Below are positions 3,837 to 57,234 of a stretch of 64,000 nucleotides of DNA, in pieces. Source of the stretch: Escherichia coli (GTDB lineage Bacteria > Pseudomonadota > Gammaproteobacteria > Enterobacterales > Enterobacteriaceae). Made by a program: the position numbers and the translations under genes. The stretch's first letter is position 1, and each line of letters begins with the position of its first letter. The notes beneath the pieces are model-generated. The model had not been told where the DNA came from, ran no database searches, and saw only the letters and a list, made by a program, of their open reading frames with translations. The DNA is taken from the NCBI RefSeq assembly GCF_003334305.1, contig NZ_QOWS01000025.1. One strand, 5' to 3'.

Positions 3837-6479
3837 TTACTGGTTTACTGAAATTGAAGTCGGAGGTTCCGTTGGCGTCACCCGCTGTGTCTGTTCCTGA
3901 ATCGCCGGTTTGACCGCCGGCGAAGTGATAGGTGCTACATTGCCTTTATGCTGGCATGGCAGTAACAAGCCGTTAAACAGATCGGCAGGCAGCGGGTCCG
4001 GCAGGTTGATATCGCAATGCGCAACACCACTCCAGAACACACTCATGTGTTCGCCAGGTTTCACCCCAGCCAGATAAACATTGCCGTCATCATCGACAAG
4101 GCCCACTGTCTGCTCGTTATCATTTTTTACTTCTGCGCCAAACGGAGGATGGCTGCCGTCTTGTAAACGCAGCACCGCCATCGCTTTTTGACCACTGATG
4201 ACGGCAAATTTGCGGTAGCCAATCGCCCCTTCAGTTAGCGTGGCTTGTACCACCGACTGGGTTGCTTCGGCGTTTTCCGGCAGTTTGTTGAGGTCGATAT
4301 ACGCCTGATTGCGGTAATAGTTATTGACGTCAGAAACGACGGCTTTACCAAACATATTGGTATAAACAGCAGCACCGTTACCTTCTACCGGAACATCGGC
4401 AACGCCATCGGCATCAATCAACAAGCGTGTCCCGCCCATATTCTGGGTACGGTGAAGTGCGCCACCGTGGGCAGTAAGCGTTGCGCCGCCCTGTAACGAC
4501 AAGCCCGCAGAGGTGTATTGCCCTTCATGGTAGTTCGCACTGAGGTCAACCTGCGCCAGCGAACCATCATGGCTGTAATAGCCGTCAACGCTGGTGTGTT
4601 TGTCACTGGTGCCGACGTTCAACTGATAGTGAGTCGCGTCATCGACACGGCTGAAATAACCGACCTGACTGCTGTCCGTCCCACTGCCATAGTTACCGTT
4701 ATAGCTAACGGTACTGTTGTCGCCCCACGGCATACTGAGCGAAATGTACATGCCTTTGTCGGCCTGGTTGTCATACTCGTAACGGTAGCCAGTCATCGAG
4801 ATGCTGACATTACGAATACTGCCCATATTGAAATAGTGCGAGAGCATGATGTTGTAGTTTGTCTGCTCCTCGCGATCCCAGTAGGTATGGCGGGTATAGT
4901 TGAGATAAACCGAAACACCCGCATCGCGGAAGTTCTGGTTATAAGTGGCGGTGTACATCTCTTTGTCGTTGCCCGTGCGTACCATTCCGCTGTCACTGGC
5001 ATCCAGATACTCGCTCATGGTCATAAAGTTCTCTTCCGAGAAGCGATATCCAGCAAAAGTAACGCGGCTGTTGAGCTGGTCAAAGTCTTTGGAATAACTC
5101 ACACGGAAGGAGTTACCGTCCAGCGAACCTTTGCCATAAGCGGTGTCTTTATCCAGTTTGGTGTGCGAGTGAGTAACATCAAACGCGACCGCGCCGAATG
5201 TAGACAAATCGCGACCGACGCCAAGCGCCGCAGACTGATAGTTTTCATCTCCCAGTGCGCCGCCATATAACGACCAGCCGTTAGCGATCCCCCAGGAAGC
5301 TTCAGCACCAGAAAAAAATTCACCCTCGACATGGTGTCCCCACTCTTGCGGACGGCCCATCATGATCTTATAGCGAACCTGACCTGGGCGAGTGAGGTAT
5401 GGCATCGAGGCGGTGCTGATGTCATATTCCTGCACCTGGCCGTTCTGTTCTTCAATGCGAATATGCAACGTACCGGAGACAGAATCACCAAGATCCTGAA
5501 TACGAAACGGTCCAGCCGGAACCTGCGTTTCGTAAATCACACGCCCCATCTGGCTGACGGTCACTTTTGCTGTGGTGTGTGCCACGCCGGAAATGTCTGG
5601 CGCGTAGCCGCGCAGATTGGGAGGCAACATTTGATCGTCAGTACTGACACTGCCACCAACATAGTTAAAACCATCAAAAATATCGGATCTGAGGTAATCC
5701 TCGCCCAGCGCCAGTTTGGCTTTTAATGATGGTAACGCCCGCCAGGCATAGTAGCGACTCCACTCCCATTTTTTTTGAGTTTCATCGCCGCTGAATTCAT
5801 CGTCATCATTACTGCGAGTATGTTGATAGTTAGTCTGCCAGTCAGCACGCATACGCCACGGCCCCAGGTTAACCCCGACCGTCCCGTTGCCGCTGATCTC
5901 GTTACTATCATCACCGCCATTTTCTTCGTGCCGGGTTTGTGCGTTGATGCTGTAGTCCGCGACGATCCCGGAGATGCCGTCATCCCAACGTGAAGGCGGA
6001 TCCCAGTCGGGATAAGTATATTCGAGGTAAGCCTGTGGCAGTGAAATGACTAATGCGGACTGGCTTAAATCAGCCTTAATTTCCATGCCTTCCAGTTGAC
6101 CGGATTTCAGGCATTTAGCATCGTGGCTCCATTGCAGATTTTTCGCCACGTCTTCTTTTAAACCAAACTGCGCTACCAGTTCCGGTGTCAGACAAGCATA
6201 GCTTTTGCTCGCGTCATCTTCACCAGCATACCAGTAAATATCGTACTCTTCCGCCAATGGCTGTTTATTTAGTTGAACCTGTAAATTGTATTTTCCGGGC
6301 TCAACATATCCCTGGCTGGAAAAACGCTTCAGATCAATTTTTGTGTCGCCTTTTAATTCCAGAAAACGGGAATCAAACTGAATGTCGTCTTCAGCCCAGA
6401 CACTGCTATAACTCCCTGACATTGCCAGCGCAATGCACCACGGAAGAATCCGTAATCGAAAAAGAGAATGGTCAGGCAT
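3837..6479 (-). CDS. yfcU: outer-membrane fimbrial usher YfcU, full length
   Basis: Uninterrupted 880-aa ORF with signal peptide, typical usher size; in K-12 this gene is a disrupted pseudogene. Confidence 0.9.
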   Translation of the reverse strand: MPDHSLFRLRILPWCIALAMSGSYSSVWAEDDIQFDSRFLELKGDTKIDLKRFSSQGYVEPGKYNLQVQLNKQPLAEEYDIYWYAGEDDASKSYACLTPELVAQFGLKEDVAKNLQWSHDAKCLKSGQLEGMEIKADLSQSALVISLPQAYLEYTYPDWDPPSRWDDGISGIVADYSINAQTRHEENGGDDSNEISGNGTVGVNLGPWRMRADWQTNYQHTRSNDDDEFSGDETQKKWEWSRYYAWRALPSLKAKLALGEDYLRSDIFDGFNYVGGSVSTDDQMLPPNLRGYAPDISGVAHTTAKVTVSQMGRVIYETQVPAGPFRIQDLGDSVSGTLHIRIEEQNGQVQEYDISTASMPYLTRPGQVRYKIMMGRPQEWGHHVEGEFFSGAEASWGIANGWSLYGGALGDENYQSAALGVGRDLSTFGAVAFDVTHSHTKLDKDTAYGKGSLDGNSFRVSYSKDFDQLNSRVTFAGYRFSEENFMTMSEYLDASDSGMVRTGNDKEMYTATYNQNFRDAGVSVYLNYTRHTYWDREEQTNYNIMLSHYFNMGSIRNVSISMTGYRYEYDNQADKGMYISLSMPWGDNSTVSYNGNYGSGTDSSQVGYFSRVDDATHYQLNVGTSDKHTSVDGYYSHDGSLAQVDLSANYHEGQYTSAGLSLQGGATLTAHGGALHRTQNMGGTRLLIDADGVADVPVEGNGAAVYTNMFGKAVVSDVNNYYRNQAYIDLNKLPENAEATQSVVQATLTEGAIGYRKFAVISGQKAMAVLRLQDGSHPPFGAEVKNDNEQTVGLVDDDGNVYLAGVKPGEHMSVFWSGVAHCDINLPDPLPADLFNGLLLPCQHKGNVAPITSPAVKPAIQEQTQRVTPTEPPTSISVNQ

Positions 6480-54087: not shown

Positions 54088-55344
54088 ATGCTCCATCCGC
54101 GAGCCAGAACCATGTTGTTATTATCGCTCCCCGCCGTGGCAATTGGGATTGCGTCCAGTCTTATTCTGATTGTGGTGATGAAAATCGCCTCGGCATTACA
54201 GAATTTGCTCTGGCAACGACTGCCGGGAACTCTGGGGATAGCCCAGGATTCACCCCTCTGGATCATCGGTGTATTAACGCTAACGGGTATTGCGGTGGGG
54301 TTGGTTATCCGTTTCAGCCAGGGTCATGCCGGACCAGACCCCGCCTGTGAACCGCTGATCGGCGCACCGGTTCCGCCCTCTGCGCTACCAGGACTTATCG
54401 TAGCATTAATTCTTGGTCTTGCTGGTGGCGTCAGCCTGGGGCCAGAACATCCGATCATGACCGTCAATATCGCCCTTGCGGTTGCCATTGGCGCTCGTCT
54501 GTTACCGCGCGTCAACCGAATGGAGTGGACTATTTTAGCCTCTGCCGGAACCATCGGCGCGCTGTTTGGCACACCTGTTGCGGCGGCGTTGATATTTTCG
54601 CAAACCTTAAATGGCAGTAGTGAAGTTCCGCTATGGGATCGTCTCTTTGCGCCGTTAATGGCGGCAGCAGCTGGTGCACTTACTACCGGATTATTTTTCC
54701 ATCCTCATTTTTCACTGCCCATTGCGCATTACGGACAGATGGAAATGACCGATATTCTCAGCGGTGCAATTGTCGCGGCGATTGCCATCGCAGCAGGGAT
54801 GGTCGCCGTATGGTGCTTACCACGGTTGCACTCAATGATGCATCAAATGAAAAATCCGGTGCTCGTGCTGGGTATTGGCGGATTTATTCTCGGTATTCTG
54901 GGGGTTATTGGTGGACCAGTTTCGCTGTTTAAAGGGCTGGATGAGATGCAGCAGATGGTGGCAAATCAGGCTTTCAGCACCAGCGATTACTTTTTGCTGG
55001 CGGTAATTAAACTTGCCGCCCTGGTCGTTGCTGCCGCCAGTGGCTTTCGCGGTGGGCGAATCTTCCCGGCAGTGTTTGTCGGCGTGGCATTAGGGTTGAT
55101 GCTGCATGAGCACGTTCCCGCCGTACCAGCGGCAATAACCGTTTCTTGCGCTATTCTCGGCATCGTGCTGGTGGTAACACGCGATGGCTGGTTAAGTCTT
55201 TTTATGGCGGCAGTCGTTGTACCCAATACCACATTGCTACCGCTGCTCTGTATCGTCATGCTTCCGGCATGGCTGTTATTAGCAGGTAAGCCGATGATGA
55301 TGGTCAATCGTCCGAAGCAACAGCCACCCCACGATAACGTTTAG
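54088..55344 (+). CDS. yfeO: ClC-family-like putative ion-transport membrane protein YfeO
   Basis: 418-aa polytopic membrane ORF rich in G/A/L helices. Confidence 0.9.
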
Positions 55345-55458
55345 CAAAAAATGCTCTCCTTTATGATTTAAGAGTTATGGCGATGATACGGGGCTTTACC
55401 TCCCCGTAATATTGCGTTAACAGGCCGCTGACGGCTTCGATCGTGAAGGAGAATAACA

Positions 55459-55785
55459 ATGTTCAGGTCACTGTTTCTGGCGGCCGCCCTGATGGCATTT
55501 ACCCCGCTTGTAGCAAACGCAGGTGAAATCACCCTACTGCCATCAATCAAATTACAAATTGGCGATCGCGATCATTACGGTAATTACTGGGACGGTGGTC
55601 ACTGGCGCGACCGTGACTACTGGCATCGCAATTATGAATGGCGTAAAAACCGCTGGTGGCGTCATGATAATGGCTATCATCGTGGCTGGGATAAGCGTAA
55701 AGCGTATGAGCGTGGCTATCGTGAAGGCTGGCGCGATCGTGACGATCATCGCGGAAAAGGCCGCGGACATGGACACCGCCATTAA
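55459..55785 (+). CDS. ypeC: secreted DUF2502-family protein YpeC (basic, Trp/Arg/His-rich)
   Basis: 108-aa ORF with signal peptide ([21 protein letters not shown]) followed by a low-complexity W/R/H/D/Y-rich mature region. Confidence 0.8.
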
Positions 55786-55809
55786 ACACATTCGCCAATG
55801 GAGCACAAT

Positions 55810-55845
55810 GCCTGATGCGACGCTAGCGCGTCTTATCAGGCCTAC
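55810..55845. repeat. REP (repetitive extragenic palindrome) element
   Basis: GCCTGATGCGACGCTAGCGCGTCTTATCAGGCCTAC, the classic E. coli REP family sequence, in the ypeC/mntH convergent intergenic region. Confidence 0.5.
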
Positions 55846-55863
55846 AAACCGGCTCTTTAACGC

Positions 55864-55897
55864 GTAGGGCGGATAAGGCATTTACGCCGCATCCGCC
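55864..55897. repeat. second REP element (forms a BIME-like pair with the first; a partial third copy follows to about 55920)
   Basis: GTAGGGCGGATAAGGCATTTACGCCGCATCCGCC, then partial GCCAGATGCGACGCT. Confidence 0.5.
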
Positions 55898-55925
55898 AAT
55901 AGTGCCAGATGCGACGCTCATTCAA

Positions 55926-57173
<1,248 letters not shown>

Positions 57174-57176
57174 CTA

Positions 57177-57198
57177 AAACATAGCCTTTGCTATGTTT
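57177..57198. promoter_or_regulatory. MntR operator (palindrome AAACATAGC-N4-GCTATGTTT)
   Basis: Perfect 9-bp inverted repeat with 4-bp spacer immediately upstream of the mntH ribosome-binding site. Confidence 0.55.
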
Positions 57199-57213
57199 CA
57201 TGCTATGCCAAAC

Positions 57214-57234
57214 GAGAATGATTATCAAATTCAT
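57214..57234. promoter_or_regulatory. Fur box upstream of mntH
   Basis: Minus-strand GATAATCATTCTC matches the Fur consensus core GATAATCATTATC with one mismatch. Confidence 0.5.

Follow-up and report, generated by a model that had tools for sequence, protein, structure and literature searches.

YpeC of Escherichia coli, an exported DUF2502 protein of the Rcs and mar/sox responses with a possible role in binding an envelope ligand

The stretch of Escherichia coli DNA considered here, 64,000 nucleotides long and called the window below, carries near one end a short gene that RefSeq labels 'DUF2502 domain-containing protein YpeC'. The gene occupies exactly the open reading frame for which an earlier note on this DNA had proposed a small secreted protein rich in Trp, Arg and His. 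Pfam PF10697 (DUF2502) matches the product with E=1e-23, residues 23-106 aligning to positions 1-90 of the 90-position model. The 651 bases around ypeC match E. coli strain A7 at 100%, and the region is found in 5,425 of the 5,426 complete E. coli genomes. In the RefSeq annotation the local gene order is glk, yfeO, ypeC, mntH (on the opposite strand), ypeD and nupC. The two neighbours ypeC and mntH, whose adjacency had been pointed out before, converge, so that they are not co-transcribed and share no promoter. The features of the locus are collected in Table 1.

Table 1. Positions of the features at and around ypeC, in window coordinates
Feature	Position	Strand	Remarks
Marbox (MarA/SoxS site)	55340-55354	-	reads GCATTTTTTGCTAAA on the minus strand; runs across the stop codon of yfeO (55342-55344)
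Conserved block GATTTAAGAGTT	55366-55377	+	phylogenetic footprint TTTARGAGTT
Candidate RcsB half-site TAAGA	55369-55373	+	as a complete 14-nt box it would cover 55369-55382, about -52 to -39
Dyad ACGGGG-N8-CCCCGT	55388-55407		inverted repeat in the promoter spacer, about -33 to -14
-10 hexamer TAATAT	55408-55413	+	conserved as GTAA.AT; 7 nt upstream of the mapped TSS
Inferred transcription start site (TSS)	55421	+	by alignment from the Salmonella cappable-seq TSS; 38-nt 5' UTR
Shine-Dalgarno AAGGAG	55446-55451	+	strong; 7 nt before the ATG; kept in 77 upstream regions
ypeC coding sequence	55459-55785	+	ATG start, 108 codons plus stop; ORF list and RefSeq annotation
Sec signal peptide	55459-55521	+	residues 1-21; n-h-c layout with A-x-A, by inspection
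DUF2502 core module	55522-55668	+	residues 22-70; invariant residues, AlphaFold pLDDT
Amphipathic helix	55693-55737	+	residues 79-93; conservation, low-confidence helix prediction
Cationic Gly/His/Arg tail	55747-55782	+	residues 97-108; pLDDT below 50, predicted disordered
REP element 1	55810-55845	+	GCCTGATGCGACGCTAGCGCGTCTTATCAGGCCTAC; palindrome, stable hairpin
REP element 2	55864-55897	-	inverted repeats, direct repeat, RNA fold; BIME-like pair with REP element 1
Partial third REP copy	55903-55918	+	sequence repeats
mntH (Nramp Mn/Fe importer)	55926-57164	-	convergent with ypeC; ORF and annotation
MntR box	57178-57197		upstream of mntH; no other MntR palindrome in the window; the ypeC promoter is 1.7 kb away

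The gene is old and well kept. Orthologues were found in 80 species genomes, and the composition rich in Trp, Arg and His is retained in them. The ratio dN/dS is 0.05-0.09 against ten genera, the C-terminal part included, which amounts to strong purifying selection. Considering both the retention in orthologues and the dN/dS values, the composition of YpeC is not a product of chance. The tail-to-tail placement of ypeC and mntH recurs at almost every one of the 80 species loci, and Pantoea and Chimaeribacter show it as well; it is an old synteny, inherited vertically. The other flank is more variable: yfeO lies directly beside ypeC in Escherichia only, and elsewhere ipdC and gpr intervene (PMC5770404). 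Three further reading frames of 83-114 codons overlap ypeC, one on the same strand (55523-55867) and two on the opposite strand (55547-55798 and 55552-55881). Since selection acts on the ypeC frame, as judged by dN/dS, they were dismissed as by-products of codon repetition. It is nearly certain that ypeC is a real, correctly annotated gene for a Sec-exported periplasmic DUF2502 protein.

The REP elements that had been noted after ypeC are present as an inverted pair. They fit their type, an imperfect palindrome of about 35 nt with the pattern GCC(T/G)GATGCG...CCTAC, placed in intergenic DNA on the 3' side of a gene. The Rfam model naRNA4 (CssrE) matches them with 48 (REP element 1) and 43 bits, below its gathering score of 59.5, and the RNA fold of the ypeC-mntH spacer has z=-3.9. 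The scan for intrinsic terminators gave none after ypeC, and the REP hairpins are the sole 3' structures.

What kind of protein does the gene encode? By eye, the N-terminus begins with MFR, continues with a hydrophobic stretch and ends in A-N-A|G; it contains no Cys and hence no lipobox. The same layout is seen on inspection in all homologues examined. Cleavage is predicted after A21, which would leave a mature protein of 87 residues, in agreement with the signal peptide and mature length proposed earlier. The mature protein is 19% R, 14% G, 12% D, 10% H, 9% W and 8% Y. Residues 23-108 comprise 16 R, 12 G, 10 D, 9 H, 8 W, 7 Y, 5 K, 4 E and 4 N; this segment has a pI of about 10, 17% aromatic residues, 14 Asp plus Glu and a GRAVY of -2.1. 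From D36 on, W, R, H, D, Y and G make up 84% of the 73 residues. The repeated patterns described before are real but short: WRDRD occurs twice, and the related motifs GY-x-RGW (GYHRGW), YERGY and GYREGW are matched by direct repeats in the DNA. An internal duplication was considered and rejected, as a BLASTP comparison of one half of YpeC with the other found only WRDRD in common (E=0.049).

The most conserved part of YpeC is the DUF2502 core. It carries the motif GDRDxxGxYWDGxxWRD at residues 35-51, just after the signal peptide, a layout common to all members examined. Nine residues are invariant in 44 orthologues (G35, D36, D38, G41, W44, D45, G46, R50 and W55), and four (G35, G41, W44 and W49) are invariant across 43 diverse DUF2502 members. 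An AlphaFold model of full-length YpeC is confident for residues 31-70 only (pLDDT 83-87); when the module alone was modelled with a diverse alignment, the mean pLDDT was 88.9. In the prediction, short strands, one helix and a beta-hairpin pack into a compact unit; the family alignment behind it is shallow and narrow. The label 'low-complexity' in the earlier note is apt in part only, as residues 22-70 or so make up a conserved and confidently modelled module. A search of the PDB by fold gave no match to the module, and sequence profiles, one of the whole protein and one of the core, gave chance matches there only (E>0.2). NCBIfam, PADLOC and PHROGs gave no meaningful match for YpeC, and its sequence has no catalytic signature.

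Beyond the module, AlphaFold places a helix at residues 79-92 with low confidence, and the conservation of this segment is high. G86, Y87, G90 and D93 are invariant in YpeC orthologues, about 90% or more of which also retain A82, Y83, E84, R85, R88 and W91. On a helical wheel of residues 79-93, a stripe of small residues (A82/G86/G90) runs beside an aromatic stripe (Y83/Y87/W91), with the charges on the opposite side. The tail that follows differs between genera in both length and sequence and is rich in His and Gly throughout; the final 15 residues of the 44 YpeC orthologues are on average 35% His. The E. coli tail is short and ends in GHGHRH, with four His in the last six residues. On these predictions, mature YpeC would consist of a folded module, a conserved amphipathic helix and a disordered, cationic, His-rich tail.

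This anatomy bears on the suggestion, made in the earlier note, that YpeC might be a membrane-active cationic peptide. Such a peptide, rich in Trp and Arg like indolicidin, tritrpticin or lactoferricin, would permeabilise membranes and could serve as a weapon or as a self-directed regulator. The high Trp and Arg content, the net positive charge and the amphipathic helix with its aromatic stripe are what one would look for in it. The proposal nonetheless fits poorly and is hardly credible: YpeC has 14 acidic residues and a core module that is near charge-neutral and predicted to fold, and its 87 residues exceed the length of such peptides. The protein is targeted to the periplasm of its own producer, and no immunity or export genes occur in the annotated neighbourhood. 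In addition, ypeC is a vertically inherited core gene with stable synteny in the Enterobacterales and is under purifying selection.

The family to which YpeC belongs is small. A survey of 1.84 billion representative proteins found 86 DUF2502-like representatives with E<0.001, some of them frameshifted or truncated predictions. All 43 of the 43 diverse core sequences match PF10697. The Pfam scan of YpeC and these core sequences gave no match to carbohydrate-binding families, and YpeC matches DUF2502 only. Of the named members that were examined, almost all come from the Enterobacterales (Enterobacteriaceae, Pantoea, Erwinia, Yersinia, Serratia, Chimaeribacter and Rouxiella), the exceptions being a pair of Betaproteobacteria, Jeongeupia and one Rhodocyclaceae genome. 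The only part common to the whole family is a module of about 50 residues, [IV]xLxPG[IV]SLxIGDRDxxGxYWDGxxWRDxxWW, which some distant members carry in tandem double copies. The aromatic-rich repeats of cell-wall-binding and choline-binding proteins are likewise short units rich in Gly, Trp, Tyr and Asp that can stand in tandem, with aromatic residues that stack on the ligand. The DUF2502 module resembles such carbohydrate-binding repeats in its tandem copies, and differs in that it has no Pfam or structural match to them, so that the likeness is a lead only.

His-rich tails are found across the family. Most tails of distant members are 14-35% His and are rich in His/Asp, His/Pro or His/Lys, with examples such as HGHGHGHH, HHHHHHH and HHDHDHDD. 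Some Pantoea members are recorded as 'zinc ABC transporter substrate-binding protein', a name that probably just reflects the His-rich stretch. Proteins with metal-binding His-rich tails or loops (for example ZnuA, HypB, SlyD and Hpn) also have, at a flexible end, runs in which His takes turns with Gly or Asp and in which composition is conserved rather than sequence, as in DUF2502. The likeness is compositional only: there is no homology between YpeC and these proteins, and the ypeC promoter is without an MntR or Fur site.

The E. coli paralogue of YpeC is YaaX (b0005), which is 60% identical to YpeC over residues 2-66 and shares its signal peptide and module. Both proteins have a His-rich tail, and both have been tied to Rcs in the literature. 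YaaX lacks an amphipathic helix of the YpeC type and has a Pro/His-rich tail in its place. Like ypeC, yaaX has a convergent neighbour, in this case yaaA, with a near-identical REP element lying between the two genes, an arrangement that parallels ypeC and mntH. Expression of yaaA rises with hydrogen peroxide, as does that of mntH. Reportedly, by the title of one paper, yaaA is a member of the OxyR regulon and lowers unincorporated iron; mntH is also under OxyR control. The parallel between the two gene pairs was drawn after the fact from two cases and may be a coincidence.

Several published studies bear on the paralogue and the wider family. The yaaX gene is listed in a table of the RcsB regulon (PMC2731931) and is induced by colicin M (PMC3599342), and the promoter of a Serratia DUF2502 gene has been used as an Rcs reporter (PMC8470065). 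In cusS mutants, the expression of yaaX shifts together with the cus genes and zraP (PMC10920338). No marbox could be seen by eye upstream of yaaX, a gene that is likewise missing from the MarA targets shown in PMC5684230.

The promoter region of ypeC was mapped by comparing 77 distinct upstream regions from other genera with the window. A Salmonella TSS, ...GTAAATTGCATTAA*CAGGCC (PMC10268841, supplementary figure), aligns to ...GTAATATTGCGTTAA|CAGGCC here. With the TSS at about 55421, TAATAT takes the position of the -10 hexamer and the centre of the marbox falls at about -74. The marbox is conserved at 95% or more in the 77 regions and is reversed with respect to ypeC, that is, in class I position and orientation. 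The sequence GTAATATTGCGTTAACAGG at 55407-55425 is also conserved in these regions. All of these promoter elements are conserved although the upstream gene differs between genera. A generic sigma-70 scan found no ypeC promoter, as expected of an activator-dependent promoter with a poor -35 element. A class II promoter, with TATGAT at 55362-55367, directly behind the marbox, as its -10 hexamer, was rejected: the hexamer is unconserved, the marbox points the other way and the Salmonella TSS falls at about 55421.

Two further elements lie between the marbox and the -10 hexamer. The RcsB box has the consensus TNRGA-N4-TCYNA and is usually placed just upstream of the -35 element. Within the conserved block, TAAGA lies at such a place and matches the left half, TNRGA, only; the corresponding right half, TGGCG, neither matches the consensus nor is conserved. 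The paralogue yaaX carries TTAGAGATTAGG at a similar distance from its own start codon. Perhaps TAAGA is a direct contact for RcsB at the ypeC promoter; the RcsB dependence of ypeC could also be indirect. The second element is the dyad, in which 80% of the aligned cells are Watson-Crick paired in register, compared with 27-39% when the two arms are shifted. At one pair, 14 of the 77 sequences have replaced G:C with A:T on both sides. In class I mar/sox/rob promoters such as those of marRAB and fpr, a reverse marbox, bound in vivo by MarA and SoxS, lies about 72-74 bp upstream of the TSS, as it does at ypeC. Unlike them, ypeC has further conserved elements, namely the block with TAAGA and the spacer dyad, and its -35 element is poor. 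The combination of block, dyad and poor -35 suggests the input of a second activator.

Published studies show how ypeC is controlled. Among the data shown for MarA ChIP-seq in ETEC, the ypeC site is the identical 15-mer, and the same source names ypeC among E. coli SoxS ChIP-exo targets (PMC5684230). In Salmonella, a SoxS ChIP-seq peak falls on the same marbox at ypeC, and class I geometry is described as a marbox in reverse orientation at about -62 or -72 (PMC10268841). An inhibitor of LolCDE raises ypeC RNA 42-60-fold, alongside wza, wcaE, bdm, ycfJ and spy, in a response that includes degP and other envelope-quality-control genes (PMC5105897). In an O157 isolate with a disrupted rcsB, ypeC RNA is 23.7-fold lower (PMC5343319). 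The earlier note had named absence of expression, along with absence of metal binding, as what would count against it; as the last two studies show, the gene is strongly induced under envelope stress and its RNA is about 24-fold lower when rcsB is disrupted. We consider it nearly certain that ypeC belongs to the Rcs envelope-stress and mar/sox responses, and not to a metal regulon.

Small exported proteins that are induced by envelope damage and bind periplasmic targets without catalysis are well represented by Spy, CpxP, ZraP, Ivy and MliC; ZraP and Spy have also been linked to metal stress. The co-induction of spy with ypeC supports a comparison of YpeC with these small stress proteins induced by Rcs, Cpx and Bae. 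Could YpeC work in the periplasm as Spy, CpxP or ZraP do, as a chaperone or holdase that needs no ATP and whose aromatic and charged surface and flexible tail bind unfolded or mislocalised envelope proteins, such as stranded lipoproteins or outer-membrane proteins? The gene is co-induced with spy and degP when lipoprotein sorting is blocked (PMC5105897), the paralogue yaaX responds to peptidoglycan and colicin M stress, and YpeC is a small basic protein of the periplasm in which a disordered tail and an amphipathic helix are predicted. However, Trp, Arg and His are much more abundant in YpeC than in Spy, CpxP and ZraP, and the mini-fold predicted for YpeC is distinct; there is no likeness in sequence or fold, and no relationship. 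With a GRAVY of -2.1 and few aliphatic residues, it would have little to offer an unfolded client. A holdase role is quite unlikely.

How much weight should be given to the neighbouring manganese importer? The earlier note mentioned mntH beside a likeness of YpeC to metal-binding peptides; inspection of the control regions gives no regulatory link between the two genes. The genes converge, the MntR box lies upstream of mntH only, and the regulators of ypeC are MarA/SoxS and RcsB. A scan for the Fur consensus at up to 3 mismatches gave no site in the window, and hence none near ypeC. One Fur-like sequence within the ypeC coding sequence, GATAATGGCTATCATCG at 55666-55682, is more than 3 mismatches from the consensus and was set aside as a chance resemblance. 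The MntR and Fur scans together thus show no operator of either metal regulator at the ypeC promoter. The adjacency of mntH does not imply shared control with ypeC, and the metal hypothesis drawn from it is without backing in the regulatory evidence.

The case for metal can also be argued from the protein. On this account the His tail, and possibly an Asp/Gly loop, binds Zn, Ni, Cu, Mn or Ca, so that YpeC buffers periplasmic metal or hands it over under stress, possibly linked in function to the Mn importer next door. That the His tail of YpeC binds metal is indeed plausible, considering that the richness in His is kept while the sequence of the tail drifts and that D36, D38, G41, D45 and G46 never vary. 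The co-regulation of yaaX with the cus genes and zraP in cusS mutants, the Pantoea 'zinc ABC transporter' records and the convergence of both paralogues with peroxide-stress genes for Mn/Fe handling (mntH and yaaA) can be cited in the same sense. On the other hand, the Pfam, NCBIfam and PDB searches, the last by both sequence and fold, found no homology to metal-binding families or structures; the E. coli protein has no Cys, and its tail offers only the four His in its last six residues. His-rich tails can equally be pH-dependent charge switches. The promoter has no MntR or Fur site nearby and answers to MarA/SoxS and RcsB, and the convergent genes have separate promoters. Nor is the pairing with the importer universal: an Nramp neighbour is absent at the DUF2502 loci of both betaproteobacterial genomes, where other neighbours are found. 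Metal binding or buffering, the main rival reading of the function of YpeC, is somewhat unlikely.

The reading that we prefer is that YpeC is a stress-induced periplasmic protein that binds an anionic ligand of the envelope without catalysis. We put its probability at about two in five, and that of the biochemical mechanism at about one in three. Envelope damage would lead RcsB to activate the ypeC promoter, and MarA and SoxS would do so under antibiotic or redox stress. YpeC would then accumulate in the periplasm and act there non-catalytically, the aromatic, acidic and basic surface of the module binding an anionic glycan or lipid head group. Peptidoglycan, osmoregulated glucans, phospholipid or LPS in transit would be candidates for the ligand. 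The cationic tail, rich in His, may contribute binding that depends on charge, on pH or on divalent metal.

Some points tell against the envelope-ligand reading. No structural analogue backs a binding role for the module as it is predicted. D36, D38 and D45, together with the glycines and the His tails, would fit a metal site as well as a site for a glycan or lipid. Finally, the shift of yaaX with the cus genes and zraP points toward metal stress. A bolder proposal, which we consider unlikely, would combine the two lines of thought: the DUF2502 module would be an undescribed Trp-rich mini-fold for ligand binding which, with the His tail, acts as a metal- or pH-gated envelope protector or sensor input, and the tail-to-tail placement of ypeC with mntH and of yaaX with yaaA would reflect a real functional link between the responses to envelope stress and to metal imbalance.

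The ypeC gene, the DUF2502 family, the MarA/SoxS site and the Rcs dependence were already on record. Added here are the division of YpeC into three parts, a confidently predicted mini-fold without known relatives, the conservation of His-rich tails across the family and a promoter map at the level of coordinates. A functional study of YpeC or YaaX dealing with ligand, phenotype or localisation was not found in the searchable literature, and a search with the locus names b2390 and STM2407 brought no further microbiological paper.

Few members of the Rcs response are induced as strongly as YpeC and YaaX, which are still functional blanks. On this response depend, in part, how enterobacteria tolerate antibiotics, make capsule and form biofilms. 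In addition, ypeC is a direct target of MarA and SoxS, regulators of antibiotic resistance. To know what this conserved and apparently new small fold binds would fill a gap in our understanding of how enterobacteria repair or shield a damaged envelope.

The spacer of the ypeC promoter holds a conserved dyad, ACGGGG-N8-CCCCGT, placed between a weak -35 element and the -10 element. In an alignment of 77 upstream regions, pairing between the two arms was found in 80% of cells when read in register, against 27-39% when the register was shifted, and some of the changes were compensatory, affecting both sides of the dyad. As judged from these sequences, the dyad may be a site for a dimeric regulator. 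Further upstream, the stop codon of yfeO lies inside the ypeC marbox in Escherichia because the ipdC-gpr segment, which separates yfeO from ypeC in other genera, is missing there; the ypeC promoter block is still intact beside this junction.

On the mntH side, RefSeq annotates a small protein of 29 residues, YpeD, whose reading frame overlaps mntH over the first 20 nt of that gene and contains the MntR box, so that its translation would pass through the mntH operator region.

Features of the ypeC-mntH region and of related loci
Feature	Location	Strand
Dyad in ypeC promoter spacer	window 55388-55407	
Overlap of the yfeO end with the ypeC marbox	window 55340-55344	
ypeD	window 57145-57234	-
MntR box within ypeD	window 57178-57197	
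ypeC and mntH, convergent	window 55459-57164	
Counterpart of extended YpeC records	window 55523-55867	+
yaaX and yaaA, convergent	L082 (yaaX locus) 635-1860	
HSP20 and DUF2502 genes, divergent	L084 (Rhodocyclaceae) 4385-5303	

Both E. coli DUF2502 paralogues, ypeC and yaaX, lie tail to tail with a neighbour (mntH and yaaA, respectively), and each of these neighbours is peroxide-induced with a role in Mn/Fe handling. Near-identical copies of a REP element (GCCTGATGCGACGCT..CGCGTCTTATCAGGCCTAC) occupy the two intervening spacers. The shared arrangement is a coincidence noticed post hoc in two cases; read-through or antisense interplay between the convergent genes would be possible.

A 398-nt contig labelled Rhizobium wenxiniae (L002) shares 99% identity with ypeC of E. 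coli, and one labelled Chryseobacterium sp. 18061 (L052) carries complete enterobacterial synteny (yfeO, mntH, nupC); both are almost certainly enterobacterial contamination or mislabelled assemblies. Many database 'proteins' of about 135 residues (P0002-P0006, P0011, P0023 and P0029) are versions of YpeC in which a frameshift or the loss of the stop codon lets the reading frame run on into the REP element. They may stem either from errors in assembling the repetitive codons or from natural variation.

Among distant members of the family, three proteins (P0169, P0185 and P0201) end in a Cys-containing CPPGQ(A/G)KKG(N/R)C in place of the His-rich tail, and these sequences suggest that the C-terminal appendage can be exchanged between functional types. 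The DUF2502 gene of a Rhodocyclaceae genome lies divergent to a gene for an HSP20 small heat-shock protein, and in Jeongeupia (L083) the DUF2502 gene follows, on the same strand, a gene for a Na+/H+ exchanger with a CorC domain. These neighbours hint weakly at a stress-related or ion-related setting for DUF2502 proteins outside Enterobacterales.
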